Assembly (NCBI GenBank): GCA_963768625.1
Contig: CAVYIK010000003.1
Span: forward strand, 64,625-128,624
Reading direction: 5' to 3'
From: an uncultured bacterium
GTDB taxonomy: Bacteria; Patescibacteriota; Minisyncoccia; UBA6257; 2-01-FULL-56-20
DNA: 64,000 nucleotides
Shown here piece by piece: positions 2,977 through 51,922 of the stretch; position 1 is the stretch's first letter, and each line of letters begins with the position of its first letter. The notes below the pieces were generated by a model. That model had not been told where the DNA came from. It worked only from the letters and a program-made list of their open reading frames with translations, and searched no databases. Position numbers and translations under genes: made by a program.

Positions 2977-3001
2977 ACCGGGAACCCGGCGGACAAAATG
3001 T

Positions 3002-3994: not shown

Positions 3995-5432
3995 CGTCGT
4001 TCTTCGGTTCGACAAGGTCTCGTTCGAGCATGGGCAGAAGCCCATCCTCCGCGAGGCCGATTTTTCTGTTCGGCAAGGCGCAAAGATAACGCTCATGGGA
4101 CAGAACGGCGCGGGCAAAACCACGATCTTCCATCTCATCGCAAAAGCGCTCCAGCCCATGGAGGGAAAGGTGATCGTGAACAATGATCTTTCAATGGCTA
4201 TGAGCCGCCAGGTCGTCCCCCGCGACCAGATGGGCTTCACGGTCCAAGAATTCTTTGAGCGCACTTTTGCAAAGAAGGTCTATGACATTGAGTCCCGGAT
4301 CAAAGAAGTCCTTGAAGTAGTGCATCTCAAGGCCCCGCTTGACCGCTTCGTTTCTTCATTCTCCGGCGGCCAGCAGGCGCGCCTTCTCCTTGCCCAAGCG
4401 CTCATTCACGATCCGGATATTCTCCTCCTCGACGAACCGACGAACAACCTCGACAAGGAAGGTATCGCCCACCTCACGAAGTTCCTGATTGATTATCCAA
4501 AGACGTGCATCGTGATCTCGCACGACGCCGATTTCTTGAATTCCTTCACGCACGGCGTCCTCTATCTCGATATCTTCACCCACAAGGTGGAGCAATACGC
4601 CGGCGACTATTTCGACGTCGTCGCCGAGATCAACGCACGGCACGAACGCGAGCGCATGAAGAACGTGCGGCTTCAAAAGGACATCCAGCACCGGAAGGAC
4701 CAGGCGAACTTTTTCGCGCAAAAAGGGGGCCATATGCGCGATGTGGCAAGAAAGATGAACGAAAAGATCGAAGCTCTGTCGGAAGACCTCGTAGAGATGC
4801 GCGAGGAGGACAAGACCATCCGGAATTTCGCCATCCGCTGTCAGTCGGACCTCTCCGGACGCCTCCTTGAGCTTGATTCCGTTTCCATCATGAAAAACCA
4901 TAAGTCGGTGATAAAAAAAGTGCAGGTCACCCTAAAGAAAGGCGAACGCCTGCTTTTGGCCGGCTCGAACGGGATCGGGAAGACGACGCTGCTCGAAAAG
5001 CTCGCGACCGGGCATGCGAAGGGCGAACATGTCACGCGCGGCACGCACATCAGCCATTACCGCCAGGATTTTTCGACGCTTGATTTCGAAAAGACCGTAT
5101 TCAAAACGCTCTCCGACGCGATGCAGGAAGGGACGGAACAGGAACTGCGTTCAACTGCCGCGGGATTTCTTCTTGACGCCGGCGTGCTCCGCGCAAAAGT
5201 GGCCTCGCTCTCCGAAGGGCAGAAAGGATTGGTTGCGTTCGCGAAGATATCGCTTGAACGTCCGGGACTACTCATCCTTGACGAACCTACGAACCACATC
5301 AACTTCCGCCACATCCCGGTCATCGCAAAAGCGCTTGATCGCTACGAAGGCGCGATGATCCTCGTAAGCCACGTTCCCGATTTCGTGAAGCAGATAAGGA
5401 TCGACAAGGTTCTTGACCTTGACGCGCTCTGA
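3975..5432 (+). CDS. ABC-F family ATPase (two tandem ABC domains, no TM domain)
   Basis: Two Walker A motifs (GQNGAGKTT, GSNGIGKTT), two signature motifs (SGGQQ, SEGQK) and two Walker B motifs (LLLDEPTN, LILDEPTN). Confidence 0.9.
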   Translation: MPSVSDNVVLRFDKVSFEHGQKPILREADFSVRQGAKITLMGQNGAGKTTIFHLIAKALQPMEGKVIVNNDLSMAMSRQVVPRDQMGFTVQEFFERTFAKKVYDIESRIKEVLEVVHLKAPLDRFVSSFSGGQQARLLLAQALIHDPDILLLDEPTNNLDKEGIAHLTKFLIDYPKTCIVISHDADFLNSFTHGVLYLDIFTHKVEQYAGDYFDVVAEINARHERERMKNVRLQKDIQHRKDQANFFAQKGGHMRDVARKMNEKIEALSEDLVEMREEDKTIRNFAIRCQSDLSGRLLELDSVSIMKNHKSVIKKVQVTLKKGERLLLAGSNGIGKTTLLEKLATGHAKGEHVTRGTHISHYRQDFSTLDFEKTVFKTLSDAMQEGTEQELRSTAAGFLLDAGVLRAKVASLSEGQKGLVAFAKISLERPGLLILDEPTNHINFRHIPVIAKALDRYEGAMILVSHVPDFVKQIRIDKVLDLDAL

Positions 5433-18711: not shown

Positions 18712-18720
18712 GTTCGTAAT

Positions 18721-18939
18721 TTATAGTTTGAATTCCTCGTCCTTCGGCAGATGAAATTTCGCCTTCGCCTCTTTCACGGCCTGGTCGATTTCCGAAAAGA
18801 TTTTACGGAAATCGCTTCCCGTGTACGAGTAATTACCCCGGTTTCCGCAGTTTCCCAGTATCCGGAGATCCCGCAGTATCGCTCTAACCCTCCGTTCCGC
18901 TACCCTTTTAAATCTAGCCTCTTTTGACTCTTTTTCCAT
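18721..18939 (-). CDS. defence-operon gene 1: small basic helical protein (72 aa)
   Basis: ORF track, 9 nt upstream of gene 2: KRVAERRVRAILRDLRILGNCGN. No motif recognised. Confidence 0.55.
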   Translation of the reverse strand: MEKESKEARFKRVAERRVRAILRDLRILGNCGNRGNYSYTGSDFRKIFSEIDQAVKEAKAKFHLPKDEEFKL

Positions 18940-19087
18940 ATTTTCTATGTTTTATAAGGTTTTTTCGACGTTTTATACGCTTATTATGTGATTCCTAGCG
19001 TAAATACTATTCTATTGTGCTCCTATAGGAATATATGTCAAGTGGACAAACTGTTAATACAAAGGAGTGAATTATAGAAGAATAGCG

Positions 19088-19492
19088 CTATTTCATGATT
19101 CGCGCTATCTTTTTCGCTACATATTCTGGGTTGCGCTTGATCTTCGACCCATAAAACCTGAGGACCCGATACCCCGCCTTTCGCAACGCCCTACTCTGGA
19201 GGCGATCCCTGCGGATATTGCCCGCGATCTTTTTGCGCCAAAAGGCGGGAACGTCGGATTTCCATTTCCCGAAACCTCTCCCGTGCCAGAAGTCCCCGTC
19301 GGCGAAGATCGCGACCTTCGATACGGAGAAAACGATGTCGGGTTTGCCTGGCAGCGTTGTGACGTTTTTCCTGTATCGTTCTTTTCTCTGGAACTGCCTG
19401 ACAATCTCCGCCAACAATTTTTCGATGTCGGTATTTTTCGTGCCGACTTTCGCCATCAAAGCGCTGCGTTTCTCCTTCGTTAATTTATCCAC
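19088..19492 (-). CDS. vsr: very-short-patch repair endonuclease Vsr
   Basis: RSALMAKVGTKNTDIEKLL, LPGKPDIVF, AIFADGDFWHG, FWRKKIAGNIRRD and AGYRVLRF follow the Vsr family pattern. Confidence 0.85.
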   Translation of the reverse strand: MDKLTKEKRSALMAKVGTKNTDIEKLLAEIVRQFQRKERYRKNVTTLPGKPDIVFSVSKVAIFADGDFWHGRGFGKWKSDVPAFWRKKIAGNIRRDRLQSRALRKAGYRVLRFYGSKIKRNPEYVAKKIARIMK

Positions 19493-20009
19493 TTTCTTTA
19501 ATGCGCGGATAAATAGTGTGGGCCTCGCCGACGAGAGCTTTCGTGACGGTTATGTTCCAGCCTCTCATGGTTTTGTGCCATTTCTTGAATTTAAGAAATT
19601 GTTCCCACGTAATCTCCAAAATTTTCTTCGGTTGTAGATTCTCGTCGATGATGACTATGATCACGTATTCGAATTTCTTTTCCGACGGTCGCTTGTCTTC
19701 GGGATCGCCGAGTCCGTAAAAGACACTGGTTAAACTATTCGGCTCTGTGATCGTCTTAATGCTGTATCTGTCTCCTTTTCTACTCAATGCATCGACGTTT
19801 TGAGTTCCTTCTGGGGCTGCCTGAAGTTTGGGCAGACCGGGAATTTTATTGTAGGTCTCGATGGCCAGAAACTCTCCACGCTCCCCCGTGATATTCTTTG
19901 TCCTGATCAAGCCTCTCTTTTTCAGCAAAGCGATGGCGAAGGCGTAGACGCTCCATACGATGTTATCGTCGGCGGCCTCTATTTTCTGGAATACTTCCTC
20001 TTTCCCCAT
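19485..20009 (-). CDS. putative type II restriction endonuclease (cognate of adjacent m5C MTase)
   Basis: 174 aa, sandwiched between dcm (12 nt gap) and vsr (8 nt overlap). GERGEFLAIE...VDALSRKGDRYSIKT resembles an E...D-x(n)-(S)xK PD-(D/E)xK core. This is inference from position plus a weak motif. Confidence 0.5.
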   Translation of the reverse strand: MGKEEVFQKIEAADDNIVWSVYAFAIALLKKRGLIRTKNITGERGEFLAIETYNKIPGLPKLQAAPEGTQNVDALSRKGDRYSIKTITEPNSLTSVFYGLGDPEDKRPSEKKFEYVIIVIIDENLQPKKILEITWEQFLKFKKWHKTMRGWNITVTKALVGEAHTIYPRIKESG

Positions 20010-20021
20010 GGAAGATAAATT

Positions 20022-21116
20022 TTATAAAAATTTAAGTATTTCCTCGCCGATTTCTCGTATGACATCTACTGCCACGCTGTTGCCGAGCTGTTTGAACGCC
20101 TGCGTCGGGGTTACCGTTTTCGGAAAACGGAAACCCTTCGGAAATCCCATCATTGTTTTGGCTTCGTCAACCGTCAAAATATGTTTCGAATTTCCCACGA
20201 TATAAGTATCCCAACTTCTCCTGTCCACAAACCATTCTCCGTTCTTTTTCCTGTACACTGGTGAGCCCCGACCCCCGACACGGATGGTCCTCCCTGTTTT
20301 GTCCGGCCACTTTTCGTCTTTGAAGAATTTTCTCATGGTCATGCCTCCTGGCGTGGTCGGCTCGGGGAATTTAAAATCGCGCGCGCCGACAGTGTTTTTC
20401 TTGAAAGCCACCAGATAAAACCTTGGGCGGGCGGTGGGCAACCCGAAATCACTCGCGCTCAATATATCCCATGAATCGTCCTGTCCCTGGTTTACGTGAT
20501 ACCCGGCTTTATCAAGTTTTTTGAGAATCGATCTAAATACGTGACCCCCGCCGAGCGTTACGATGTTTCGCACATTTTCCAAAAAAACGACCTTCGGTTG
20601 ACGCGCCCGAATGATTTTCTCGATATCGTTGAACAAGGTGCCCCTGTCATCGTCGAACCCGTTTTTCTTACCGATCCGGCTGAACGGCTGACAGGGAAAA
20701 CCGGCGCACAACATATCGAATGGGGGTATGACCTTCCTGATGTGCCGTGCCCGCACCGATTCCGACCGAACGGTGGCATCGTCTGTTAGAGTAATATCCT
20801 TTATGCTTTTCCAGAAATGAGGCTCGCGCGATTCGTCCCCAAACAAGCGCGGGGCCATTTTGCGAAAGTTGTGTTCGTAGGTCGCACGGGCGTTGCCATC
20901 GAATTCGTTGACAAAAACGCATTCCCCGCCGAGGTCGTGCAGGGCAAAATGGAAACCCCCGATACCAGCAAAAAGATCAACGAACGTAAATTTTGTTCGT
21001 GATCCCGGTTTCATCTTTTCGCTGCTATCGTGGTTGTCAATCTTTCCTTGGTGCTCATTTTCCATCATTTTAAATGATTCCCTGAGAAACATAAAGTGAT
21101 CGTAATAGATCAACAT
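20022..21116 (-). CDS. dcm: DNA (cytosine-5)-methyltransferase
   Basis: Motif I FVDLFAGIGGF, motif IV GFPCQPFS, motif VI FLENVRN and motif X QLGNSVAV. The true start may be an internal Met (MMENEH...). Confidence 0.9.
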   Translation of the reverse strand: MLIYYDHFMFLRESFKMMENEHQGKIDNHDSSEKMKPGSRTKFTFVDLFAGIGGFHFALHDLGGECVFVNEFDGNARATYEHNFRKMAPRLFGDESREPHFWKSIKDITLTDDATVRSESVRARHIRKVIPPFDMLCAGFPCQPFSRIGKKNGFDDDRGTLFNDIEKIIRARQPKVVFLENVRNIVTLGGGHVFRSILKKLDKAGYHVNQGQDDSWDILSASDFGLPTARPRFYLVAFKKNTVGARDFKFPEPTTPGGMTMRKFFKDEKWPDKTGRTIRVGGRGSPVYRKKNGEWFVDRRSWDTYIVGNSKHILTVDEAKTMMGFPKGFRFPKTVTPTQAFKQLGNSVAVDVIREIGEEILKFL

Positions 21117-21153
21117 TAAAAATCTTTAAAAGAATACTTGACAATTGCCCAGA

Positions 21154-21311
21154 GCCCCCTGCCTGCGCCTTGCCTTTGAGGGGGCTCTCGGAGGCGCCCG
21201 CAGCTTGGTCTTTTGCGGAGCAAAAGTGCGGGCGCCGAGAGAGCAGGGTGGCTCGCGCCGCTGGAGCGCGAGAACACCCGTACCCTCAAAGGCAAGGCGC
21301 AGGCAGGGGGC
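21154..21311. repeat. 158-bp element: perfect 29-bp terminal inverted repeats enclosing ~100 nt with three nested hairpins
   Basis: GCCCCCTGCCTGCGCCTTGCCTTTGAGGG (21154-82) is the exact reverse complement of 21283-21311. Inner stems lie at 21185-21201/21228-41, 21210-26 and 21252-72. Confidence 0.85.
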
Positions 21312-21325
21312 CCTATTCGCAAAGA

Positions 21326-23756
21326 TTATTCGCGAAGTCGCCGATAGATATCGTCTTCAATGGCTTGTCTATCTTGCCCATATTTCATTCGTGAGTATTC
21401 CTTGAATTTCCCCGCCAGCTCCTTCTCTCCCCCTCCCCACGACCCCGTCCCAATCCTCAAATTAAACGGTCTAGTAGATTGCCCACCAATAAGTAGCTTC
21501 GCATACGCATTCAAGTTATCAATATTTAAGAGATCATTCTGGTTAAAGACCGGCTCAAACTGCTTCACCAAGAACTCCGCATCAGACGGCCCCACCCGAA
21601 AACATAGAATAGACCCCACGTTCCCAAAGACCGCGTCTTTGATCTTGTCCGTCAGCTGGCCGATGAACTGGTGCGCCATCGTCAGGTTCAGCCGATACTT
21701 CCGCGCCTCGGACAAAATAGTCGCGATAGAATCCGTCGTAAAGTTCTGGAACTCGTCAATATAGAGATTAAAGTCCCGCCGCTTTTCCGCATCAGGCACG
21801 TCTATCCGTGAAAGTGCGGCCATGAGCAACTTCCCCGTAAAGACCATGCCAAGAAGCCCCGCATTGATGTCCCCTATCTTCCCCTTGGAAAGGTTGATGA
21901 GCAATATCTTCCCCTGGTCCATCGCCTCCCGGAAATTGAACGCCGACTTCGGCTGGCCGATGATCGGCCGCATATAGTCGTTGGAGATAAAGTTGTTGAA
22001 CTTGGACGTGATGTAGGGCGTCATGTTCGCAAGCGACGCCTCGCCGCCGGCCTTGACCGCCTCCTTCGTCCCAGAAATCAATGACGACCGGATTGTGGAT
22101 GCGCTCAAGCTTTCGCAGGCGGTACGCCGTGTCCGTGAATACGCGCGGCACTTCCATCAAGGTCGCCGGCTCGTTCGGCATGTCTTCCATCAAAAGGAGC
22201 AGCGCGTTCCGCATGTATTGCTCAAACATCGGCCCCATCGTCTCCGGCGGGAAGAGCTTGTTGAAAATGCTCTGCATCTCGTTCACGATGAACGTCTTTT
22301 CCTCCGGCCGGTTGTAGTTGTAGTCCAGCATATTGAGGCCGAGCGGGCGCGAAAGGTCGCCGGGATCAAAATAAATGACGTCGTCCAGGCGCGAGGGCGG
22401 CACGAAGCCCAAGCGCGTTCTCCACGAGGTCGCCGTGCGGGTCTATGATCGCAAGGCCCTTGCCCGCCCGGATGTCTTCTATCACCATATTGCCGATGAG
22501 CGTGGACTTTCCGGTGCCCGTCTGCCCGACGGTATAGACATGTCGGCGGCGGTCGTCGTCCGTGATGTAGATGGGCTTCGCCTGGCCGCGGAAGACGCTC
22601 TCGCCGAGGAGCGTCCCCTGCTTCGGCAGGTTCTCCGGCGGCGGGGCTTCTTTGGATTTGAGCCATTTCACGCGCGGCGTCTCCGTGGAGGCGATGGGTA
22701 GGTGATAGAAGCTCGCGATCTCTTCGCTTGAAAGCGTCATCGCCTGGCTCGCGTCGTATTCGCGAAAAATGAACTGGTGGACGAGCTTGTCCGGATTGCG
22801 CGGCTTTACGATCCTGAACTCGTTGCGCGTCGGACTCCCGAACTGGCTGAATCCGGCCGCAAGGCCGTCCAGCATGTCGCTCTGCCTGGAAGGGCGACCC
22901 CGCGGAGGCAACGAGCCGCACGTTCACGAAGAAGAGCGGCTTCATGATCTTTGCCTGGAGCGCTTTCACCGCTTCCTCGTCCACCGTGCGCTCCTGCTTC
23001 TCTTTTGCTTTTTGCTCTTCGGTCTTCGGGTTCAAAACATCGCTCGGATTGGAGAGCGAACGGCGGACCATCGCCGTGGAAAACCTTCTTGAACGGCTCC
23101 CCTTTCTTCAGCCGCTCGATCGCCGCCTGGACCTCGCTCTTTGTCCCCGCGGGAGCAGGCCTTATCACGACCTGCATCGCCGCGCCCTCGCCGATCTCGT
23201 TCACCTTCGCGAATGCACCCAGGATGGACTCAAAGGAGTCAATGCCAAGTTCGGTATATGTCCGCATCGGGAGGCCGTAGTGCTCCTTCTGCTTCACGTA
23301 CGCGGCCGCCGTCGCCCCGTGCGCATTGAAAATATTGAAATCGTCCGCCCAGCTCCTCCACGCTCGCCCCGTTCCAGAGTCCCTGGATCTGCTTCATGCG
23401 ACCGTCTCGGACCAGCGCTTCGGCACCGCAAGATAAAAATGGATCTCCTCGCCCACGTGCGGCACCGCGACTTCAAACGTGAACGGTTTCTTTATGGCGG
23501 CCAAGCTGCCCAAGAGCTGCTCAAAATGCGCAAGTTCAGCTTTGAAGTCCCCGTGCTCGCCGTGCCCGGCGCCGCCGTCACCTCCGGTCCCTGTGCCCCC
23601 CGCGCCCGCGGACGGGCGCGGTATTTTTACGAGGAAAAGCGCTGTCCCGAGCGACGCCGCCATCCGCCCGCGCGCAACCGCGCGCAAAATAAAATACACC
23701 GCGACCCCGGCCACGGCGCCGACCACGATCGCGAAGAAGATGTAGAAGCCAAGCAT
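21326..23756 (-). pseudogene. TraG/VirD4/TraD-like type IV secretion coupling-type ATPase with N-terminal TM helix; at least 6 frameshifts as given
   Basis: The protein can be followed through ORFs 23394..23756, 22806..23297, 22283..23071, 22366..22911, 21792..22412 and 21326..22108. Walker A is GQTGTGKST and Walker B is LYIDEFQNF. Confidence 0.75.
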
Positions 23757-31381: not shown

Positions 31382-33665
<2,284 letters not shown>

Positions 33666-33706
33666 TACCAATAGATTATCACCGAAACTTCCCGTTGGCA
33701 AAATAA

Positions 33707-33967
33707 CTAGCCCTTTGTCTCAAGAGCGCTAACTCGATGATCAAGCGCAGCTACTTCGCTCACGTCGGCTTTTTTCTTAAGCTGATTTTTTATGATCACA
33801 ATATCCAATATTATGGAGTCAATCTTTTCGCCTTGCAATACAAACATACACTTCATATCGTCAAACTCTTCCCGCAAGCCGACGTATTGTTCCACCACTA
33901 ATTTTATTTTGTCATCATAATGTTCCGTAACTACACCGACGATATGATGGGCATGCGTCTCAAACAT
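33707..33967 (-). CDS. hypothetical protein (86 aa), AT-rich
   Basis: ORF track. It is intact and has markedly lower GC than neighbouring genes. Confidence 0.45.
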   Translation of the reverse strand: MFETHAHHIVGVVTEHYDDKIKLVVEQYVGLREEFDDMKCMFVLQGEKIDSIILDIVIIKNQLKKKADVSEVAALDHRVSALETKG

Positions 33968-34069
33968 TCTCCCTATCTCAGAAAAGAATTCCTCTTTTTC
34001 AATTTTTCCATTAACGCAACCATAGCATACGGATGGTTAAAATTATCTAAACTATTTATTAAATTTTCA

Positions 34070-35169
34070 TTAAATGATAATACCGCCTCCCAACATCTCT
34101 CCATCTTTACGGTAAAACACAGCCGACTGGCCGGGAGCCACGAATTTCTGTGGCTTCGCGAAGTCCAATTTATTATAGTTGCCACTTTCTCCTTTTGAAA
34201 GAGTTGCCGTCGAAAGCGGCTGGCGATAGCGGACGCGCGCAAACACTGTGCTGAGCGCGCTCTTCTGGCGACTGTCCATCGATAAAATTCACCCCCGCGA
34301 GCTCGATCTCTTTGTGATACAACGCAGGATTTTCGTCCCCTTCCGCCACTACGACCACATTGGCTGCTACATCTTTTGAGGCAACATAGAACGGCTTGCG
34401 TTCCTTCGCGCCGCCCGTCTTCGGGAACTTAAAATCGGCCTTGATGTGCCGCTCGCCGATCGTATAGAACTCCGCGCCGGAATGCGTACCGATCTTCTTT
34501 CCTTCAGTGGTCATAAGCACCCCGCGCCGCTCGGGAATATATTGCTTCAAAAAATCTGTCCACCGAGATCTGCCCCAAAAAGCAGATTCCCTGCGAATCC
34601 TTTTTTTCTGCGGTCGGAATTCCCTTCGCGCGCGCCATTGCCCGTACTTCGGACTTCAAATAATCGCCTATCGGGAAAAGGCACTTTACAAGCTCGGCCT
34701 GCGTAAGCGTCCAGAGGAAATACGACTGATCTTTAGTTTTATCCTTTGCTTCAAATAAGCGCGCTGAGCCATCGCGACTCCGCGCGGGCACTGTCCCGCT
34801 GATCCGCACATAATGCCCCGTCGCCACATAATCCGCGCCTGCCGCAAGCGCTTTCTTCAAAAACAATCCGAACTTTATCTCGCGGTTGCACATCACGTCC
34901 GGATTCGGCGTGATGCCCGCGCGATAGCCCTCAATCATATAATCCACCACGCGCTGCTTGTACTCTTCTTCAAAATCCCAGACGTAAAACGGAATGCCGA
35001 AGTGCTCCGCCACGCGCCGCGCGTCCTCCGCGTCCCGCTCGGCGCAGCCGTCCAAGTTATAACAACGCATAAAAACACCCACGACCTCGTAGCCCTCGTC
35101 CCTCAAAAGCATTGCCGCAACGGAGCTATCCACCCCGCCGGACATCCCGACAAACACCTTCTTTGCCAT
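34070..35169 (-). pseudogene. mnmA: tRNA 2-thiouridine(34) synthase MnmA; at least 2 frameshifts as given
   Basis: PP-loop VGMSGGVDSSV and the remaining N-terminal half are in ORF 34504..35169. It continues in 34173..34550 and 34070..34279. Confidence 0.85.
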
Positions 35170-37940: not shown

Positions 37941-38615
37941 TTACTGGGCGAGCGCTTTATCAAGCACCGCCTTGAATTCGTCATAGCTCGTAGGATTCGG
38001 GATCTGTGTCAAATTCAGGAAGAACGTCGGCGTGTGGTCAATGGCCGCCGCGTTCCCGCTCGTCACGTCTGCTTGAATCTTGTTTGATACCTCACCTGAA
38101 CTCATGTCTGTGTCAAATTTTGCCACGTTAAGGCCGAGCGAGGAAGCATAGCCGTTGAAATAATCGGCGACGATCGTGTTCGTGAACGCCGAGGACCAAT
38201 CATTTTGTTTTGCATACAGCAGGTCGTGCATCTGCCAGAACTTTCCCTGGAGCCCTGCCGCCTCCGCCGCCTGCGCCGAAATGCCCGCGTTCTCATGGAT
38301 CTGATACAGCGGGAAGTTCCTAAAAGCGAATAATACGCGGTCCCCGTACGCAGTCATTAATTGCTGGACGATCGGCGACGTTTCGCCGCACGCAGGGCAT
38401 TCGTAATCTCCGTACTCAATGAATGTCACTTTTGCGTTTTTGTTCCCTTGCGTCCAATCCGCGGCGGCGATCGGCGGAACCGTGGTCGCCACGAACCCGG
38501 GCGATGTGCTCGTCGCCGTGCTCGAGAAACCGCCCGACATCACGCCCGCCGCGATCACGCCCACCACAACGAGCACCACAAATCCCACGATGAACCAAAG
38601 TGTTATTTTATCCAT
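37941..38615 (-). CDS. DsbA-family thiol:disulfide oxidoreductase, membrane-anchored
   Basis: N-terminal TM helix. CPAC active site in FIEYGDYECPACG. C-terminal TPTFFLN cis-Pro-region pattern. Confidence 0.8.
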   Translation of the reverse strand: MDKITLWFIVGFVVLVVVGVIAAGVMSGGFSSTATSTSPGFVATTVPPIAAADWTQGNKNAKVTFIEYGDYECPACGETSPIVQQLMTAYGDRVLFAFRNFPLYQIHENAGISAQAAEAAGLQGKFWQMHDLLYAKQNDWSSAFTNTIVADYFNGYASSLGLNVAKFDTDMSSGEVSNKIQADVTSGNAAAIDHTPTFFLNLTQIPNPTSYDEFKAVLDKALAQ

Positions 38616-38624
38616 AGAGATACA

Positions 38625-39059
38625 TTATACATAATTCCGTATTTGTTCCGATAGAGCTTTCAACTCTGCTTCGGGCGTTTTTTCCCGCGAGCCCGGCCGA
38701 TAAAGGAATTTCCTGGGCTCGTACTCCGTGATGCCTTCGTCGCCGGCCTTACGAGGAACGATATGGAGGTGAAAATGCGGGATGGACTGGCCCGCCGCTT
38801 TATTTTCGTTCCAGACATGGTGGAATCCTTCAGCTCCAAAAAGTTTCGCGAGCGCTGTTTTTATTTTCGTAGAGAGCTCGAAAATGGCGTTCCTTTCGTC
38901 CATGGTCAGTTCCTCAAATTTTTGCACGTGCCGGATAGGGCAGACCAAAGTATGCCCCGGCGTGATAGGAATGTTCGTAAGGAACGCCCACGCCAAGCCA
39001 TTGCGGGCAACCGTCCGTTCCTTTATTTCCGGCGAGGTGCAATAAACGCAATCCGGCAT
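38625..39059 (-). CDS. HIT family hydrolase
   Basis: Internal ATG of ORF 38625..39164, with the histidine triad HFHLHIVP. Confidence 0.8.
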   Translation of the reverse strand: MPDCVYCTSPEIKERTVARNGLAWAFLTNIPITPGHTLVCPIRHVQKFEELTMDERNAIFELSTKIKTALAKLFGAEGFHHVWNENKAAGQSIPHFHLHIVPRKAGDEGITEYEPRKFLYRPGSREKTPEAELKALSEQIRNYV

Positions 39060-39060
39060 T

Positions 39061-39267
39061 TTATGGCCTGTTGTGCCGCAAGTTGTCCATGGCCCAGCAA
39101 TATTCAATAACGAGGAACGCGATCCACTGCGCTTCCCTGACCGCGATAAGGAGCCAGGTACCAAAAATAAGCGCTATCGTTTCAATGATCCAAAAGATCG
39201 CATCGAAGATCTCCTCATGCCGCGACTTCGCCTCGTTATTCGTGATGTATTTCAAAAATTTCCACAT
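39061..39267 (-). CDS. small membrane protein (68 aa)
   Basis: ORF track, with two hydrophobic helices. Confidence 0.4.
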   Translation of the reverse strand: MWKFLKYITNNEAKSRHEEIFDAIFWIIETIALIFGTWLLIAVREAQWIAFLVIEYCWAMDNLRHNRP

Positions 39268-39382
39268 GCGGATGCTATCAGATTATATCACGCCGAGCAG
39301 AAATCCCGGAGCTCAATTTCATGTTCATACATAAAACGTGTAGCAATGGCGCAAGTGCGCCAAAAAATAATATAATACCGAT

Positions 39383-40144
39383 ATGGCGTTTTCCCCGGAA
39401 AAGGGAGGGTATTTTAATAAAAAAGGCGAAGAAATCGATTTCAGTGAAAAACGGCTCCAGTTTTGGTTAGAAAACATACCTCCAGATATACGAAGGCTGG
39501 AACACGACCTGCTCAAGGGCCAGCGAGAACTGCTCCTCGCAAACTTTTATCAGCACGACAACCAGAGCAAGAAGGGCAGATTTATCCTAATCCCGGGGTA
39601 TACAGAGGAGGCACGACAAGCCTCCTGGGAAGAATTTCAAGCCAGCTTCCCGTGGGGCGAGGAACGCAAAGAGCGCTTCGCAAATATCATCAAACAGACA
39701 CGGGCCGATCTCCCATCGCTTCTTGAAAAAAATTCAGATGTCATTCCAAAAGACAAAATCAAACTCATTGCTCTGGCCGGCTCCTCACTTTATGGTCCAC
39801 GGAAGCAAGGCGAGCGGCTCTCCGATGTTGACGTCAACATCTTACTCGACGAGAAGACGGCCAAGCGGAATTTCGACCTCCTCCCCGACATACGAAAAAC
39901 AGAGGAAATCCCCTATCACCTCTTCGGAACCGGGTACACCGATGAAGCCAGAGGTCAGCGAAGGATACATTGGATGCTGTATCCTCACTTTCCACTGGAA
40001 AATCATATGGGCGAGGAGGAAACAAAAACTCTCATCGCCGATTTGCTCGCCGGAGCGGAAGCGAGGAAACCCAAAATCATTGAATACATGCACGGCATTG
40101 AACGACGGCTCAGGGAACGCGAGGAGCCACAGGCATTAGGATAA
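39383..40144 (+). CDS. hypothetical protein with possible Pol-beta-type nucleotidyltransferase core
   Basis: 253 aa. LAGSSLYGPRKQGERLSDVDVNILLD resembles the GS-x(n)-DxD minimal NTase motif. A TATAAT lies 6 nt upstream of the ATG. Confidence 0.55.
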   Translation: MAFSPEKGGYFNKKGEEIDFSEKRLQFWLENIPPDIRRLEHDLLKGQRELLLANFYQHDNQSKKGRFILIPGYTEEARQASWEEFQASFPWGEERKERFANIIKQTRADLPSLLEKNSDVIPKDKIKLIALAGSSLYGPRKQGERLSDVDVNILLDEKTAKRNFDLLPDIRKTEEIPYHLFGTGYTDEARGQRRIHWMLYPHFPLENHMGEEETKTLIADLLAGAEARKPKIIEYMHGIERRLREREEPQALG

Positions 40145-40146
40145 CC

Positions 40147-41100
40147 ATGAAACGACCTGTCTACGTTGCCACGGTCTGCGGCGGCCAATCTTCAGAACAC
40201 GAGGTGTCACTGAAGACGGGGTTAATGATCCTCAAAAACTTAGATCGCCGAAAGTACCAACCAACCCTCGTGGTCATCGAAAAGGATGGTAAGTGGAATT
40301 TCGGCGATGGGAAATTGATTGACATAAGCGACGCGATCAAACGCATCAAACGCTTTGACCTCGTCTTCATTGCCATCCACGGCGCATTCGGGGAAGATGG
40401 CCGCTTTCAGGCCTTGCTTGAGTGGATCGGCATCCCCTATACCGGTTCTCACGTGCTCAGTTCCGCGATGGCGATGGATAAGGAGATTTCAAATATTCTT
40501 TATGAAGAGAATGGGCTGCGGATGCCTCGTTATGCCGTGGTCAAAAAGGGGCAGAGGATCAGACTCAAATTTCCATTTGTTATAAAACCGGCGAACGGCG
40601 GCTCAAGCGTCGGCATATCAATAGCAAAAACGGGAAAGGATTTGCGGACCGGCCTTAAAAAGGCTTTTCGTGAAGATGGCCGCGCGATGATTCAAGAATA
40701 TATTCGAGGCCGTGAGTTCACCTGCGGCGTACTGGAAAACAAGCGCGGAAAACCCTTCGCCCTCCCGCCAACCGAGATCATCCCAAAAACATCTTCATTC
40801 TTTGACTATGGAGCGAAATACAAAGTGGGGGGTAGTTTGGAAATTACCCCACCGCGATTACCCAAACGCAAGATCCGAGAACTTCAACGGATGGCCCTGA
40901 GGGCTCATGAAATACTGGGATGCATGGGAATGTCCCGCTCCGACTTCATGCTAAAAGGATCTGCCTTCTATATCTTGGAAACCAATACCATTCCAGGCAT
41001 GACCCAAACGAGTTTGTTGCCGCAAGCAGCAAAAGCTGCAGGAATCAGTTTTCCTGCGATGCTCGATTTAATTATCGCGGCTGGATTACGGAGGAAATAA
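40147..41100 (+). CDS. ddl: D-alanine--D-alanine ligase
   Basis: 317 aa with GGQSSEHEVS, IAIHGAFGEDG, FVIKPANGGSSVGI and ILETNTIPGMT. Confidence 0.9.
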   Translation: MKRPVYVATVCGGQSSEHEVSLKTGLMILKNLDRRKYQPTLVVIEKDGKWNFGDGKLIDISDAIKRIKRFDLVFIAIHGAFGEDGRFQALLEWIGIPYTGSHVLSSAMAMDKEISNILYEENGLRMPRYAVVKKGQRIRLKFPFVIKPANGGSSVGISIAKTGKDLRTGLKKAFREDGRAMIQEYIRGREFTCGVLENKRGKPFALPPTEIIPKTSSFFDYGAKYKVGGSLEITPPRLPKRKIRELQRMALRAHEILGCMGMSRSDFMLKGSAFYILETNTIPGMTQTSLLPQAAKAAGISFPAMLDLIIAAGLRRK

Positions 41101-46949: not shown

Positions 46950-47022
46950 GCCCCTATAGCTCAGTTGGTAGAGCAGCTCCCTTTTAAGGAGACGGTCCCA
47001 GGTTCGAATCCTGGTGGGGGCA
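46950..47022 (+). tRNA. tRNA-Lys (anticodon UUU)
   Basis: GCCCCTA-TA-GCTC-AGTTGGTA-GAGC-A-GCTCC-CTTTTAA-GGAGA-CGGTC-CCAGG-TTCGAAT-CCTGG-TGGGGGC-A. CCA is not encoded. Confidence 0.9.
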
Positions 47023-47128
47023 CACACAACATTTCGTATCGCAGCATCGTGAGAGCCGACACCCTAGCGCGACCGCGAGACACCAGGTTTATAATAGAAA
47101 GATGTGCTGGTTTTGGAAACGAAAATCT

Positions 47129-47887
47129 ATGGACTTCAAACAATCTTCTATTCCAGAAATATTGGACAGCGAGCGAGAGATGGTTCTTGCCGGTGCCAAG
47201 CGGTACGGCGAGTTTTTCGAGAATGCTTCCGGATTTAATAACCTTCTGAATAATTTGATCAAGTCCATCGATAAGCCGGATAGATTTATTTTTATTCTGT
47301 TTTATTCACAGGTTAAAAAGCATCACACCCTAGCTCTTTTCTCGGCACTCCGGCTCCATCACCTTCAAGCCGGAATGGACCTGAGGCAAACCGTCGAGGC
47401 GGCGCAGTGGGCAGCGTATGCGATGGATAGTCCTCAAAAGGAGAAATTCGTCGAGGAGGATGAAAGCGGCCTCGTCATCACAAAAAAGAAACACCAAAAA
47501 GCGATGTACGCATGGCTTGATAAAAATTTTGACGTTAAGGCGGGAGAATTCAAAAATTTGAAGGGACAAATCAGTGGATCGGTTGCTCATTCAAGCATCA
47601 TTTATGCGTTCCAGAATTTTGAAATGCGGCCAGCCCATAACCCTGGGTTCAAAATCCCATTTTTCGACATAGAAGATGATCATGTGGTGAAGACGGACCT
47701 GTGGTCCGTTGCGAATACCGCACTCGGCGTGTTGGATTTGTTCTATGGTGCCAATGAGCGTTATAAAGTTTTTAGATTGGTGGATGGCTTTGATGCTAGA
47801 TACCAAGAACTCGTTAAACAAAATAACAAGCTGAAAGGTGAAATGATGCAGAGCGAAAGATTTAAAAAAGCTACTTCGCGAGAGTGA
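47129..47887 (+). CDS. hypothetical protein (island cargo)
   Basis: Internal ATG (MDFKQSS) of ORF 47102..47887. No motif recognised. Confidence 0.6.
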   Translation: MDFKQSSIPEILDSEREMVLAGAKRYGEFFENASGFNNLLNNLIKSIDKPDRFIFILFYSQVKKHHTLALFSALRLHHLQAGMDLRQTVEAAQWAAYAMDSPQKEKFVEEDESGLVITKKKHQKAMYAWLDKNFDVKAGEFKNLKGQISGSVAHSSIIYAFQNFEMRPAHNPGFKIPFFDIEDDHVVKTDLWSVANTALGVLDLFYGANERYKVFRLVDGFDARYQELVKQNNKLKGEMMQSERFKKATSRE

Positions 47888-49208
47888 GTGTCTTCTGACT
47901 GAACACGAGCTTACTCTTGAAGCAGGATAGTAACTCTCGCTTCTCCATCGCGCTACCTTTCTTGAGAAGATATTTTGCATAGGTTTTGAGGTCGATTTCT
48001 TTGGTAGCCTCTTTTGGGGCTTCGCCCAAAACGTCATTCGTGAATTTGCGGTACCGCTCCATCTCATCCTCAAATTTCTTTTGCATCCCGATCTCGCTGA
48101 TATCCATCCCGTCGATAATGGTGAGGAGTTGCGCAATCAATTCTTCCTCGCGAATATATCCACATTTGCAATCCTTGTCTTTCGACCTTGTGCATCCATA
48201 GTAAACGTACCGTACAGTGGTGCCGTTCTTATGCGCCTTGTATTTCTCGCACGCACTGATGCCCGATCCGCATAGGCCGCAGCTGATCAGCTTCGTGAAA
48301 GCGAATTCCTTTATCTCCGACCTGATCACGAAATCGCGGTGGAGCTGTTCCTGCACTTTGTCGAACAGCTCACGCGATATTATTGCTTCGTGCTTGCCTG
48401 TATACCAGTTCCCACTTTTCAACGGATATTCAAAGATGCCGCAGTAGAATGGGTTTTTGAGGATGATGTAAATATTCGAGAGCGAAAGCGCTTTTCCGTT
48501 TTTCGTCCTGAATTTTGTCTCGGATTTGAGCCAATGATAGAGCTTACGGCCGGACCACTGTTCGTCCGCGACTTTCTGAAATATCTGCTTGATGACGGAT
48601 GCTCGCATCGAATCGATGATAACTTCGCATGGACGGTCCGTGCGTTTTTCGTTGAGATATCCAGTGGGCGCGATTGATGGACGGAGTCCTTGCTCGCATC
48701 GCGTCCTCAAGCCGCGTTTCACATTTTCTGATTTATTGTCATTTTCCAATTTTGCCTGGCTGCATAGAATCATCAGCATGAATTTCTCGCTCGGCGAGTT
48801 CGTGAATTTCTGGCTAAAGGTACGGATTTCGATTAGCAATTTTTGATCCATCAAATCCACCAGCGAGCCGAGGTCGCCCGCGTTACGGCTCAACCGATCT
48901 GGCGCCCATGTGAGAATGCCATTGAATTTGCCGGAACGAATGTCGGTCAGTAGCTCATTGAAAATCTTGCGTTGCCCGACCGCTTTTGCAGAGTGATTTT
49001 CTTTTCTTACCTCCGCGATCTCAAGACCGTCGCGCTCGGCGATCTTCAACATCTCCTTTATCTGGCTATCGATCGAGAGGACCTGTTGCTCTTCGCTCTC
49101 GGTACTCTTTCTCGCATAGAGGCAGTATTTTATTTTTATGGCCTCGGCCCTTGCTACGGAAACGCCCGACTGGTCCCAACTCTTTGGTATGGTTGTTATT
49201 TTCTCCAT
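47871..49208 (-). CDS. large serine recombinase (resolvase/invertase N-domain + recombinase domain + zinc ribbon)
   Basis: CLYARKSTESEEQQVLSIDSQ (catalytic Ser region), APDRLSRN, and a Cys cluster CGLCGSG...YYGC...C.C. Confidence 0.85.
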   Translation of the reverse strand: MEKITTIPKSWDQSGVSVARAEAIKIKYCLYARKSTESEEQQVLSIDSQIKEMLKIAERDGLEIAEVRKENHSAKAVGQRKIFNELLTDIRSGKFNGILTWAPDRLSRNAGDLGSLVDLMDQKLLIEIRTFSQKFTNSPSEKFMLMILCSQAKLENDNKSENVKRGLRTRCEQGLRPSIAPTGYLNEKRTDRPCEVIIDSMRASVIKQIFQKVADEQWSGRKLYHWLKSETKFRTKNGKALSLSNIYIILKNPFYCGIFEYPLKSGNWYTGKHEAIISRELFDKVQEQLHRDFVIRSEIKEFAFTKLISCGLCGSGISACEKYKAHKNGTTVRYVYYGCTRSKDKDCKCGYIREEELIAQLLTIIDGMDISEIGMQKKFEDEMERYRKFTNDVLGEAPKEATKEIDLKTYAKYLLKKGSAMEKRELLSCFKSKLVFSQKTLTLAK

Positions 49209-49346
49209 ACCTCAAGGGATGCCGCAACGGTGGCAGGAATCCAGAGCGTCCGAATTGGTAACTCAAAGACCCCTACAAGGCGACGAAGGGGCAAAGAAGG
49301 CAAGGAGCGTGATGTCCCCAATTTTTTCGGTAGTCAAAATGCTACA

Positions 49347-50696
49347 ATGAATGTAATGAATCGAGACGGATTTGCCGCAGTTATTCTCCTATTCGCCGTC
49401 CTCGCACTGGCCGTGATCGGTGGGATTGCCTACGTCCATTATGTATATCTGCCGAAGATAGCGGCGCAGAATAATAATGTCGCGCAACCAACATCAACTT
49501 CTGCCTCATCATCGCTTCCCGCATCAGCGACCCCGATTGCTACCACTACCGCCACGCAAGCGGCCGCAGGATCGAAGGCCTGCGCAGCGAACGATATGAA
49601 TTGTCTCATAGCGGCGGCGGCAAAATGTTCTCCGGCAGCCGTTGAATGGACCGCGACAGTTAATTTCCTAGATGTCTTTACTGAAACCGCACAAAATCAT
49701 CTTGCTTTGAAGGGATTGAGTTCTGCTGGAAAGTGCGCCTTCTCCGAACGAGTTGACGATGTCAGTTTGGCGGTAACGTCCCAGGCCGAACAGCAAGCGA
49801 AAGCACAAGGCGTAACCGATGCGCAAATCCAACAGCAATTGCAGGCGTCGAATGCGCAAGCAAAGCAATCGATAGGCATGACAACCTCATGCACGTTCAC
49901 TACGACCTATCTCGTGCAGATGCTCACTAATTGGCAAAAGGGAAATATTAGCTCAAGCGATCTCACGTCGGAAAATTGTACGGCAACCGATGCGGGCGGC
50001 AAATCCTTGCCGCTTCCCAATGCGAACGGGGTGATATCGATAACGCCCAGTGGCCAAACAGCTCCCCAGCCAGTAGCGACATCCGGAGGGAATCAGGGAT
50101 CTACAAATTACTTCGAAGGGAGCCTAACCGATCTATCAAGGATGGATGTTGTTGTGTCGTCTGGCGATTCGTTGGTGCTTGATCAGCTTGGTTTGACGAT
50201 AAAGGCAACGAGCGTGACTGCGACGACGTTCAGCGGAACAGCGACGAAATCAGGACAGACACAAAGTTTTTCATTGACTGCGGGGAACCAAGTCACTGCA
50301 TTCGGCTACGTCATTACGCTTCACGATATTGAAACCGGAACGCAGTACACCGATATTGCTGGCAAGCAAGTGTCGCTCCTCGCCGGAGCACTACACATAA
50401 CAGCTACCTCCGCCACGACGTCCGGATCCGGAATTACGACGATAACTCTAGGTGCGCCGAGTGATATTACGTCTGGAAATCTTGAATTTAAAGTAAGCTC
50501 TGTTTACGTGAGCCAGATGAGCATGACCGTGGTTAACCATACAACTGACCAGAGCGCTGCTGTAACGCTAAACGTTAATCAACCAATGACGGTGCTGGGC
50601 TATACTATGACTGTAACGGGCATTAAAGATGTCCAGGGAACGAATTCGCTGGGGCAGGCGACATTTTCCAACGAAGCCACTTTAACTTATCAATAA
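49347..50696 (+). CDS. membrane-anchored/secreted Ser/Thr/Ala-rich protein (island cargo)
   Basis: In-frame ATGs at 49347 and 49356 within ORF 48972..50696. N-terminal TM FAAVILLFAVLALAVIGGIAYV. A TACAAT at 49343-48 would favour a leaderless start at 49356. Confidence 0.65.
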   Translation: MNVMNRDGFAAVILLFAVLALAVIGGIAYVHYVYLPKIAAQNNNVAQPTSTSASSSLPASATPIATTTATQAAAGSKACAANDMNCLIAAAAKCSPAAVEWTATVNFLDVFTETAQNHLALKGLSSAGKCAFSERVDDVSLAVTSQAEQQAKAQGVTDAQIQQQLQASNAQAKQSIGMTTSCTFTTTYLVQMLTNWQKGNISSSDLTSENCTATDAGGKSLPLPNANGVISITPSGQTAPQPVATSGGNQGSTNYFEGSLTDLSRMDVVVSSGDSLVLDQLGLTIKATSVTATTFSGTATKSGQTQSFSLTAGNQVTAFGYVITLHDIETGTQYTDIAGKQVSLLAGALHITATSATTSGSGITTITLGAPSDITSGNLEFKVSSVYVSQMSMTVVNHTTDQSAAVTLNVNQPMTVLGYTMTVTGIKDVQGTNSLGQATFSNEATLTYQ

Positions 50697-50709
50697 AATA
50701 ACAGAAACT

Positions 50710-51330
50710 ATGAAAATCATAAATCAAACGACCGATGAGATGGCGCTCAAGGATGGCTCCTTTTCATCGCTCATCATCGGAGCCGTTTTAATTGTCATCG
50801 GTGGATATATAAGCTATTCCACCTATGCTTCCTCTGGCTTTTCCAATAATGCCATCTGGATCGCGGTGGTGATTTTCGCAGCCGGAATCGTAACGATTCT
50901 TTTGAGCAGTTCCATCACGATTGATATCAATAAATCGGGCGGCCAGATAGCGTATCAGAAGAAACGCCTGATTGGTTCTCAATCATCCGCTTACAACGTT
51001 GCGGACGTGCTTCGGGTTGAAACAAGAAAAGCGTGGAAAACAGTTTCTTCCTCGAAAGGAGGATCAAGTCAAGTGCTCGTATCCCAATCGGTAATCGTGC
51101 TTAAGGATGGCCAGGAAGTGCCGCTTGACCATCAGAAGCAATCTTCGGGATTCTCGGGCATTCTTATGAGCGGCCAATCAAAAGAATCCGCAGTCGCCAA
51201 TCAGGTGGCAACATTTCTCGGTGTTCCGTTCCAAGAGATAGCCCCGCCATCTGCCCGTGAGCTTGTGGAAGCTGTCCGCGAAGGCATCGAGGAGGGAATA
51301 GACAAGAGAAAAACCGACCAACAGGGATAA
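50710..51330 (+). CDS. hypothetical membrane protein (island cargo)
   Basis: 206 aa with two N-terminal TM helices, then a soluble domain. Confidence 0.6.
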   Translation: MKIINQTTDEMALKDGSFSSLIIGAVLIVIGGYISYSTYASSGFSNNAIWIAVVIFAAGIVTILLSSSITIDINKSGGQIAYQKKRLIGSQSSAYNVADVLRVETRKAWKTVSSSKGGSSQVLVSQSVIVLKDGQEVPLDHQKQSSGFSGILMSGQSKESAVANQVATFLGVPFQEIAPPSARELVEAVREGIEEGIDKRKTDQQG

Positions 51331-51342
51331 GGGGTGGGCAAA

Positions 51343-51790
51343 TGAGACACCGCCCTGACATGCCATATAGTGTCTCATCTGTCTCATTTACCCGGAAAAG
51401 CCTTATTTTACGGTCATCGACTTTTCGAAATGAGACACGCGTCTGTCTCGTTTGGACACCTGTTTTGTGTCTCAAGGTGTCTCAAATTTTCCGTTTCGGA
51501 CATGTCCGGAATGGCCTTCCGATGTCCGATTTGTCCGATTTGCCGATTTTTGGCACACGGGAATGGCACACTAAAAAGTGCCTATGCAGTGTGCCATTTG
51601 TGCCCTTTTCTCTCAAAATGTTACTCGCCGAAACTGTGTAACATTTGTAACATTTTGGAGCGTTGCACCAGGGATGTTGCATTTCAGGCCCCTCGAAAAT
51701 CCTGAATTTTCAGGCTATAGCCAGCTGCACCGCTCCGGAAACGCCGTTTCCCAAATGTTACACATCACGTTGCATTTGTTGCATGTTACA
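51343..51790. repeat. non-coding tract with five families of short tandem/inverted repeats (iteron-like)
   Basis: GTGTCTCA/TGAGACAC at 51343, 51370, 51431, 51467 and 51477. TGTCCGA/G at 51503, 51523 and 51532. TGGCACAC at 51551 and 51564, inverted at 51589. GTAACATT/ATGTTAC at 51618, 51638, 51647, 51754 and 51783. GTTGCA at 51662, 51676, 51769 and 51778. Palindrome CCTGAATTTTCAGG at 51701-14. Confidence 0.8.
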
Positions 51791-51922
51791 TTTCAATCCA
51801 AAACCCCAGACCGTGAGCCTTCCAAGGGAAATTTGGGGTTGCCCTCAAAAACCCTTATACTGATTGCATAGGGAAAGTCCGCACCCGTGAGGGGGCACAC
51901 TGCCCGAAAGCACACAGCCCCG

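Follow-up and report, generated by a model that had tools for sequence, protein, structure and literature searches.

The 3' ends of tRNA genes are a class of integration target that is normally ascribed to tyrosine integrases. Large serine recombinases (LSRs) act at simple attP and attB attachment sites (<50 bp), each an imperfect dyad around a 2-bp crossover, and excision needs a recombination directionality factor (RDF). Little is known of the mobile elements of the Patescibacteria, or candidate phyla radiation (CPR), ultra-small episymbionts that are hardly accessible to genetics. According to a review of integrative and mobilisable elements, site-specific elements with a serine recombinase insert within, and disrupt, protein-coding genes (PMC5704250), and among the tRNA-associated elements of Prochlorococcus (tycheposons) 27 of 937 have an LSR instead of a tyrosine recombinase (10.1101/2020.12.28.424599). 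Our literature search found no paper on such elements in CPR bacteria. Here we analysed a 64,000-nucleotide stretch (hereafter the window) of contig CAVYIK010000003.1 from an uncultured patescibacterium, in which a 4.9-kb block with an LSR gene lies between tRNA-Lys(UUU) and dnaJ. An earlier note, made from the sequence alone, had proposed that this block is an LSR island with the layout tRNA, attL, island, attR. We conclude that positions 47024-51898 are very probably a small site-specific integrative element, inserted at the 3' end of tRNA-Lys(UUU) by its own LSR. The decisive support is comparative and bears out the proposed layout: the ends of sister elements, the tRNA flank of the closest relative (L004), which resembles an empty site, and the absence of the block from 54 related loci.

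Element ends and sister insertions

The closest homologues of the LSR, P0002 (91% identity) and P0003 (83%), are encoded on other Patescibacteria contigs (L091 and L092, respectively), adjoining Peptidase_M50 and rpsL genes and not dnaJ, and these contigs have DNA in common with both ends of the window block. When the window, L092 and L091 were aligned at base level, the common left end read ...GGTTCGArTCCTGGyGrGGGCAC/ACACAACATTTCGTATCGC (the slash marks the junction), with identity continuing for ~60 nt, and the common right end read ...CCCTTATACTGATTGyAyAGGGAAAGTCCGCAyCCGyGAGGGGGCAC/. Directly past ...GAGGGGGCAC the three elements diverge into unrelated flanks, namely AC TGCCCGAAAG in the window, CA TCCACAGG in L092 and AA CAAAAC in L091. 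The same element is thus found with identical ends at other sites and in other genomes, with lengths of 4875, 4584 and 4113 bp for the three sisters, and these are insertions that arose independently, with identical termini. The L092 element abuts tRNA-Lys(CUU), and its displaced end, GGGGGCA-CCA (GGGGGCAC-CA), is the original tRNA 3' end with an encoded CCA. The left junction in L091 is formed by a truncated pseudo-tRNA adjoining tRNA-Arg. This pseudo-tRNA (11863-11915 of L091; Rfam model positions 9-63, with a TCG anticodon arm) stands in place of a full tRNA-Lys, and an intact tRNA-Lys(CUU) (5268-5341) lies 2.4 kb past the other end of the element, an arrangement that points to a second insertion or to secondary rearrangement.

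In the window, as in L092, attL and attR have 8 nt (GGGGGCAC) in common; in L091 the figure is 6 nt (GGGCAC). The earlier note had described a 10-nt direct repeat, GGGGGCACAC, as resembling an attachment (att) site and as compatible with a short crossover core. This repeat occurs at 47016-47025 and 51891-51900 and nowhere else in the window (0.05 matches expected; at least two copies in 0/100 shuffles), and the similarity extends imperfectly to 24 nt (47002-25 vs 51877-900, 18/24 identical). Its left copy consists of the 3' strand of the acceptor stem (GGGGGC), the discriminator A and CAC, and its right copy ends 22 nt short of the dnaJ stop codon (51923-25). The block therefore abuts an intact tRNA 3' end and is flanked by a direct repeat of that end. 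As a direct repeat the 10-mer is real; as an att core it is too long, and it consists of a core of 8 nt (47016-47023 in attL and 51891-51898 in attR) or less plus two fortuitous bases, AC. Taken alone, a 10-mer repeat is weak evidence, and the case rests on the comparative data.

From these junctions attB was reconstructed as ...TTCGAATCCTGGTGGGGGCAC/ACTGCCCGAAAG and attP as ...AAAGTCCGCACCCGTGAGGGGGCAC/ACACAACATTTCG, the latter also given in the form ...GTCCGCACCCGTGAGGGGGCAC/ACACAACATTTCG.... The host half of the attachment site is the tRNA-Lys(UUU) 3' end (T-arm, 3' strand of the acceptor stem and discriminator). The left arm of attP resembles this T-arm and acceptor region at 18/24 positions, as would be expected if one protein binds both. 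In the mechanism that we propose, the LSR of the element would recombine its attP (...GTCCGCACCCGTGAGGGGGCAC/ACACAACATTTCG...) with the chromosomal attB (...TTCGAATCCTGGTGGGGGCAC/ACTGCCCGAAAG...), crossing over somewhere within the shared GGGGGCAC, which takes in the acceptor-stem 3' strand together with the discriminator and a single base more. Such a reaction would leave the tRNA intact and move its original 3' trailer 4.9 kb toward dnaJ. Genetically, the crossover is bounded to the 8-nt GGGGGCAC, or to 6 nt (GGGCAC) in L091.

The tRNA-Lys locus in related genomes

Related loci were retrieved via DnaJ, which assigned the window to the Patescibacteria (Paceibacterota/Minisyncoccia), and 54 of them were compared, the closest genomes having 81-83% DnaJ identity. 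The order in relatives is dnaK-x-dnaJ, a gap of 0.2-1.5 kb, tRNA-Lys(UUU), a Zn-ribbon protein and then, some way beyond, tRNA-Ala(CGC); dnaJ and tRNA-Lys are 4.9 kb apart in the window. Window positions 47025-51920 had no blastn match in the loci of the seven closest relatives, and the four element proteins had no tblastn match in any of the 54 loci, so that the comparison with related genomes called for by the earlier note came out in favour of an insertion.

The closest relative, L004 (an 888-kb chromosome with a DnaJ 83% identical), provided the sequence of an unoccupied tRNA end. Its tRNA-Lys ends in ...GGTGGGGGCAC-TC-TGCCCGAAAG (core GGGGGCAC) with the trailer TCTGCCCGAAAG, and the right repeat of the window with its flank reads ...GTGAGGGGGCAC-AC-TGCCCGAAAG, differing from L004 by AC vs TC at the same place. 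The 11-mer CTGCCCGAAAG is single-copy both in the window and in L004. Since the flank of the right repeat matches the tRNA trailer of L004, the right repeat and its flank represent the displaced original tRNA 3' end and trailer, and an insertion between GGGGGCAC(AC) and TGCCCG predicts the arrangement that is seen in the window.

The tRNA-Lys neighbourhood is also a rearrangement hot spot. The two closest relatives (L003 11132-13511 vs L004 11132-11881) have opposite orientations of a segment that holds tRNA-Lys and a YdjM-like membrane gene, and in L003 a LAGLIDADG-type open reading frame (ORF; 280 aa) begins on the base that adjoins the tRNA-Lys 3' end, with an Exo_endo_phos gene alongside. 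Partial copies of the 3' half of tRNA-Lys lie 35-50 nt downstream of the full gene in L004 (11722-11758) and L006 (12395-12433), and such copies are also present in L015, L019, L020, L022 and L054; the window has none. They span the anticodon loop (TAAGGAG...) to the acceptor end, share the spacer motif CTCGCTGCCAAT[AT]G, and each follows the tRNA sequence of its own genome. These copies could be the footprint of another integrase family, of the anticodon-loop type, or decayed tandem tRNAs.

The recombinase and its family

The features of the element are listed in Table 1. The LSR has a Resolvase domain with a nucleophilic serine (PF00239, 1.4e-21, residues 30-174), followed by Recombinase (PF07508, 1.5e-16, residues 203-290) and zinc-ribbon (Zn_ribbon_recom, PF13408, 2.8e-7, residues 304-362) domains, both above gathering cut-offs. 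It matched SPbeta SprA/YokA in the PDB (1.7e-13 over residues 33-395), and its catalytic motif YARKS(35)T aligned with the SprA catalytic region. Its length equals that of its homologues (~445 aa) and, like the core repeats, which are perfect, the gene is intact. Other classes of serine recombinase were rejected. Among the SCC-type Ccr models, CcrB, the best NCBIfam match, scored 126.6 bits against a cut-off of 900, CcrC 69.7 against 900 and CcrA 63.5 against 700; NCBIfam XisF models also scored far below their cut-offs. The IS607-family serine transposon model reached 28.2 bits against a cut-off of 110. IS607-type transposases are small (~190 aa), have an N-terminal MerR-like helix-turn-helix and often accompany TnpB; the protein studied here has 445 aa with LSR domains and no TnpB-like ORF beside it.

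A search for relatives of the LSR scored 8,000 candidates, all with E ≤ 1e-20, of which the best 120 were 66-91% identical and ~445 aa long. Where source names were given, almost all were Patescibacteria lineages, and the clade is a large, undescribed family that is so far almost confined to this phylum. Among 40 clade loci examined, 17 had a tRNA downstream of the LSR, convergent with it in 17/17 cases. Seven of the 17 tRNAs lay 111-151 nt from the LSR stop, and these were tRNAs for Asp, Glu(UUC), Glu(CUC), Gln, Arg(CCG), Lys(CUU) and Lys(UUU). In other family loci, a generic scan upstream of the LSR for short repeats of the tRNA end turned up only 8-13-mers, at the level of chance.

A 72%-identical LSR, P0016, was found on 21 contigs, and four contigs with LSRs of this type (L098-L101) lie at the dnaJ-adjacent tRNA-Lys(UUU) of other Parcubacteria and have much larger cargo. 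These four diverge directly past ...GACCGTGTAGGGGCA, after which a second element-like left end follows in two of them (L098/L100, ~2880-3020), which indicates that elements stack in tandem at this tRNA. The second junction, after the right end ...GACCGTGTAGGGGCA of the first element, reads GGTTCAAGACCATGTAGGGACAC/AAAAAATTTCGTATTTGAGG; beyond it, two contigs have sigma-70-like and TraG/DUF87-like genes and the other two a further LSR with a ParB-methylase gene. In a further locus, at tRNA-Glu(CUC) (L096, 7414-8848), a 70%-identical LSR has, just upstream, parts of a cargo diversity-generating retroelement, namely bAvd and a short RVT_1 ORF.

Table 1. Features of the tRNA-Lys to dnaJ interval (window coordinates)
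Feature	Coordinates	Strand	Basis and remarks
tRNA-Lys(UUU), intact	46950..47023 (end called 47022/23)	+	ARAGORN; Rfam RF00005, 70.6 bits, model positions 1-71, full length
attL	46994..47080	.	tRNA 3' part to 47023, then element left end ACACAACATTTCGTATCGC from 47024
Integrated element, 4,875 bp	47024..51898	.	Boundaries are the points where three sister elements cease to match
orfA, 252 aa, cytoplasmic, all-helical cargo	47129..47887	+	No transmembrane segment by hydropathy; AlphaFold2 model
Large serine recombinase, 445 aa, intact	47871..49208	-	Pfam, phrog_95, PDB match
Divergent intergenic region between LSR and cargo operon, presumed promoter region	49209..49346	.	Gene geometry (predicted)
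orfC, 449 aa (488 aa from alternative GTG start 49230), cargo	49347..50696	+	Hydropathy
orfD, 206 aa, two N-terminal transmembrane segments, cargo	50710..51330	+	Hydropathy
Conserved non-coding hairpin-repeat block	51331..51800	.	Motif density, inverted repeats, folding, conservation
Element right end (attP left arm; with flank, attR)	51800..51898	.	...CCCAGACCGTGAGCC...CCCTTATACTGATTGCATAGGGAAAGTCCGCACCCGTGAGGGGGCAC; nearly invariant in three elements
Displaced original 3' flank of tRNA-Lys (host DNA), ACTGCCCGAAAGCACACAGCCCCG, up to dnaJ stop	51899..51922	.	L004 comparison

Cargo genes

All four ORFs listed in the earlier note (252 aa, the 445-aa LSR, 449 aa and 206 aa) are present at the locus, and its hydropathy statements agree with ours: the 252-aa protein is without a transmembrane segment, the 449-aa protein has one at the N terminus and is Ser/Thr-rich, and the 206-aa protein has two. 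The three cargo genes do exist, as claimed; they are not specific to this element, since the sister elements carry other cargo and orfA has homologues within Type I restriction-modification (R-M) operons. The inventory was also incomplete, in that a conserved non-coding hairpin array of ~570 nt went unmentioned. None of the three cargo proteins had a match in PADLOC, NCBIfam, Pfam or PHROGs.

The orfA gene overlaps the 3' end of the LSR gene by 17 nt and fills the spacer between LSR and tRNA, which is only ~111-151 nt in other family members. Its product belongs to a family of ~254 aa without a Pfam domain (143 homologues, the best 120 at 44-73% identity), members of which sit between hsdM and hsdS of Type I R-M operons (L102 7001-7765; L103 7001-7759; L104 1781-2539). 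The family is likely to be an uncharacterised defence-associated protein. The same operons also adjoin genes for Fic, DUF2321 and other accessory proteins. The AlphaFold2 model of OrfA was all-helical, with a predicted local distance difference test (pLDDT) score of 90, and had no significant PDB neighbour; structural matches to HEPN-like proteins were too weak to call. OrfC, which is 24% Ser+Thr, reads as a modular surface protein anchored at its N terminus, and it has a domain of ~135 aa (aa ~80-215) that recurs in 493 representative proteins. OrfD belongs to a widespread family of ~200 aa (231 homologues, the best 120 at 46-58% identity), for which the single informative source name was Candidatus Paceibacterota. 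A promoter consensus scan of the divergent intergenic region found nothing convincing there, and promoter and terminator predictions were no better than in shuffles.

The cargo of all three sister elements is mostly made up of small membrane-anchored or secreted proteins, Ser/Thr-rich or Ig-like. The conserved core of the family would be the LSR gene, the att arms and the hairpin-repeat array, and the genes between these parts are exchangeable cargo, which in this element comprises a helical protein of a family associated with defence islands as well as two proteins of the membrane or surface.

Non-coding hairpin array

Between orfD and the right repeat are ~570 nt without a credible ORF. This region (51331-51898) is 81% identical to L092 over 437 nt, with a patchy match in L091, and because its indels relative to the sisters are not multiples of three the block was considered non-coding. 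The motifs TGTNNCA/TGNNACA occur 19 times in the block, compared to 0.40 ± 0.69 times per 570 nt elsewhere in the window. Perfect inverted repeats (arms of 7-11 nt, loops of 13-34 nt) number 10, compared to 0.7 in shuffles, and there are 8 in L092, 5 in L091 and 7 in L098. They form ~8-10 modules of the type AAAT(G)-NNN-ACAC [loop] GTGT-NNN-(C)ATTT, most of them with a T-run and with the 3' arm repeated once more in direct orientation at a spacing of 9-10 nt. The NNN triplet in the centre varies by module (GAG, GGC, GTT, CGG and others), as if the modules were barcoded, and between elements it changes on both arms jointly, e.g. GTT to GGG and GGC to GTT; on three sequences this covariation is suggestive and underpowered. 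The distal non-coding region of elements with P0016-type LSRs (L098-L101) is built in the same way, and the right-end motifs are also recognisable in L098; the TGTNNCA density was not seen in the other clade members examined.

Minimum free energy folding of the block gave z = -4.65 on each strand, and no strand asymmetry was found in energy or in G-U use, so that a role as RNA is indistinguishable from a role as DNA. Rfam searches, even at a permissive threshold, found the tRNA alone and gave no match in the block. A reading of the terminal non-coding block as a TnpB/omega-RNA-like system was ruled out, as there is no nuclease gene. As the likeliest function of the array, although one well short of probable, we tentatively favour action in cis, be it in transfer, replication, packaging or regulation.

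Such a role would suit an element that depends on a helper, whether a phage, a conjugative system or DNA uptake. This proposal, which refines the conclusion of an LSR-integrated element and does not replace it, is in our judgement a possible one, short of probable, and in it the array would be the cis signal for packaging, transfer origin, single-strand priming or partition. Short-repeat and hairpin arrays are typical of pac/cos, oriT/sso and centromere-like sites. The hairpin block is conserved as well as the LSR while cargo is freely swapped, Pfam, PHROGs and NCBIfam showed no genes for replication, packaging or transfer in the element, and the larger tandem neighbour in L098/L100 has TraG/DUF87-like genes, all of which favour a helper. 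However, no helper was identified, the block has no similarity to known pac, oriT or ori sites and no Rfam match, and its modules differ in sequence, which is unusual for sites of one binding protein.

Origin and activity of the element

An origin of the block as the decayed remnant of a larger prophage, with the LSR as its integrase and the ORFs and non-coding tail left after deletion, was considered improbable. Viral contigs in IMG/VR, up to 56 kb long, do encode relatives of the LSR at 43-65% identity, and the LSR matches the PHROG integrase family phrog_95 (9.6e-67); however, the best LSR in annotated phages is only ~30% identical, no cargo protein matches any PHROG, and no structural, packaging or lysis genes were found in the element, the cargo of which was without PHROG, Pfam or NCBIfam matches. 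Moreover, three elements of 4.1-4.9 kb keep both ends and the order left arm, LSR, cargo, hairpin block, right arm, and such shared ends and internal order would not be the product of independent decay. Inoviruses are small integrated phages that have been reported in CPR bacteria; an inovirus was also rejected here, as no Walker-A (P-loop) motif was seen on reading orfA and the cargo has no profile matches and is not conserved. Finally, the suggestion that the repeat is coincidental and the LSR a resident, non-mobile gene (e.g. a domesticated invertase or resolvase) in a hypervariable tRNA-Lys region, for which one could cite the weak significance of a 10-mer repeat within 5 kb and the rearranged state of the region (tRNA inverted in L003, L006 and L013; partial tRNA copies in seven loci), is very hard to sustain when sister elements end on identical bases in unrelated chromosomal contexts, the tRNA trailer of a relative follows the right-hand repeat, and the LSR-tRNA geometry recurs with many different tRNAs.

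The earlier note had described DNA that becomes AT-richer straight after tRNA-Lys. This was borne out: the GC content falls immediately past the tRNA, to 0.482 in 47024-51898 compared to 0.551 for the remainder of the window and 0.58-0.59 in dnaJ and dnaK, and the tetranucleotide distance of the block is close to the window maximum. By itself, composition is neither distinctive nor decisive for an island.

Several observations weigh against the conclusion reached here. Further low-GC blocks in the window (minimum 0.477) weaken the argument from composition, and no cargo gene is common to the three sister elements. L004 does not offer a clean empty site, having a partial tRNA copy and a YdjM-like gene between tRNA and dnaJ, and neither an empty site nor a circular attP junction, for which the earlier note had advised looking, was recovered for this species from the source genome or the one Logan assembly found. 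Dyad scoring of the reconstructed attP and attB brought out no LSR-typical symmetry (best 11/22 matches, with no consistent centre), and no RDF candidate is conserved among the sister elements. Lastly, in the Logan assembly described below the right-hand break falls at 51852-51881, not at the 51891-51920 expected for attB, and fits neither attB nor attP.

Look-ups of the exact proteins (DnaJ, LSR and left-flank proteins) returned the source genome and one Logan assembly only, with no alternative (empty) context. In that assembly (ERR11594402) the element is a contig of its own (L002; 4,886 bp, window 46996-51881, 100% identical), which overlaps the dnaJ contig (L001; 51852-55359, 100% identical) by 30 nt. 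The left-flank contig (L105; 44665-46984) belongs to a strain variant of 98.9% identity and terminates within the tRNA, at 46984. The left branch, 46996-47025, extends to the final base of the left 10-mer and fits branching directly after 47025. The tRNA is a shared hub in this assembly and its right edge at 47025 is the branch point expected of an empty site; taken together, the breaks show strain heterogeneity near the ends of the element and not excision. A metagenome-wide scan with the left-end 19-mer gave two chance matches without further similarity, and a scan of viral contigs with the right-end 32-mer gave no match. The LSR is intact and the core repeats are perfect, no excision product was seen, and the element may still be able to move.

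Elsewhere in the window, a second low-GC block (0.47-0.50) spans ~12000-21500, and GC is also low at ~32000-35000 and ~38000-41000. An odd tRNA call by ARAGORN ('tRNA-???', anticodon 'gc', 10805-10877, minus strand) lies ~1 kb from the start of the second block, whose genes, all on the minus strand, include PDDEXK_3, DUF6339, a C-5 cytosine methylase and a weak TraG-D_C match. No integrase was seen among its ORFs of at least 150 aa, and it is probably a defence or R-M island.

Significance and comparison with known systems

The element is precisely delimited, with attL, attR, attP and attB given at base resolution, and it points to a large clade of serine integrases that target tRNA 3' ends and leave the tRNA undamaged, counter to the usual division of labour between serine and tyrosine recombinases. 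These elements carry surface-protein and defence-associated genes, kinds that are expected to shape host attachment and phage resistance, and a conserved, unexplained hairpin array travels together with the integrase. An LSR this compact, whose att sites are short and whose tRNA target is universal, could be of use as an integration tool as well. We further speculate, while holding the idea to be somewhat less than evenly balanced, that the LSR and the barcoded hairpin array may be the core of an undescribed Patescibacteria-wide family that shuttles cargo, with integrases diversified over many tRNA 3' ends (Lys, Glu, Arg, Asp, Gln, Ser and others) and the array as an essential new cis module serving, for example, single-stranded DNA entry, helper-dependent packaging or transfer, or regulation of recombination. 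If true, a phylum with almost no genetic tools would have in these elements a set of compact natural vectors that integrate at defined tRNA landing sites.

Integration by an LSR through attP x attB recombination is a known mechanism; the novelty lies in how systematically tRNA 3' ends are used, in a format that is both miniature and modular, and in the hairpin block. Prophages and elements with LSRs (SPbeta SprA, TP901-1, Bxb1, phiC31, A118 and Tn4451 TnpX) have the same Resolvase/Recombinase/zinc-ribbon architecture and catalytic serine, likewise a very short attL/attR identity (8 nt here), and an integrase gene near one end of the element. The window element differs from them in targeting tRNA 3' ends and keeping its target gene intact, in being without phage or conjugation genes, and in that no RDF was identified. 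SCCmec-type cassettes (CcrA/B/C) are alike in LSR-driven insertion at the 3' end of a conserved housekeeping gene that is not inactivated, and in their variable cargo and tandem stacking, whereas the element described here has a single recombinase and targets a tRNA, not rlmH.

The layout itself, with tRNA, attL, integrase and cargo, and attR with the displaced tRNA end, is that of islands with tyrosine integrases (Islander/P4-like), which are also alike in tandem accretion at one tRNA (as in L098/L100 here) and in a tRNA that is still functional. Their recombinase is unrelated, however, and they duplicate a tDNA fragment of 15-60+ nt (anticodon/T-loop) as opposed to 8 nt at the extreme 3' end. 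Prochlorococcus tycheposons are similar as small cargo-carrying elements at tRNA genes in a streamlined genome without classical vehicles of horizontal gene transfer (10.1101/2020.12.28.424599). Compared by description, they belong to another phylum, many of them have replication modules where the window element has none, and the hairpin-repeat block has no described counterpart.

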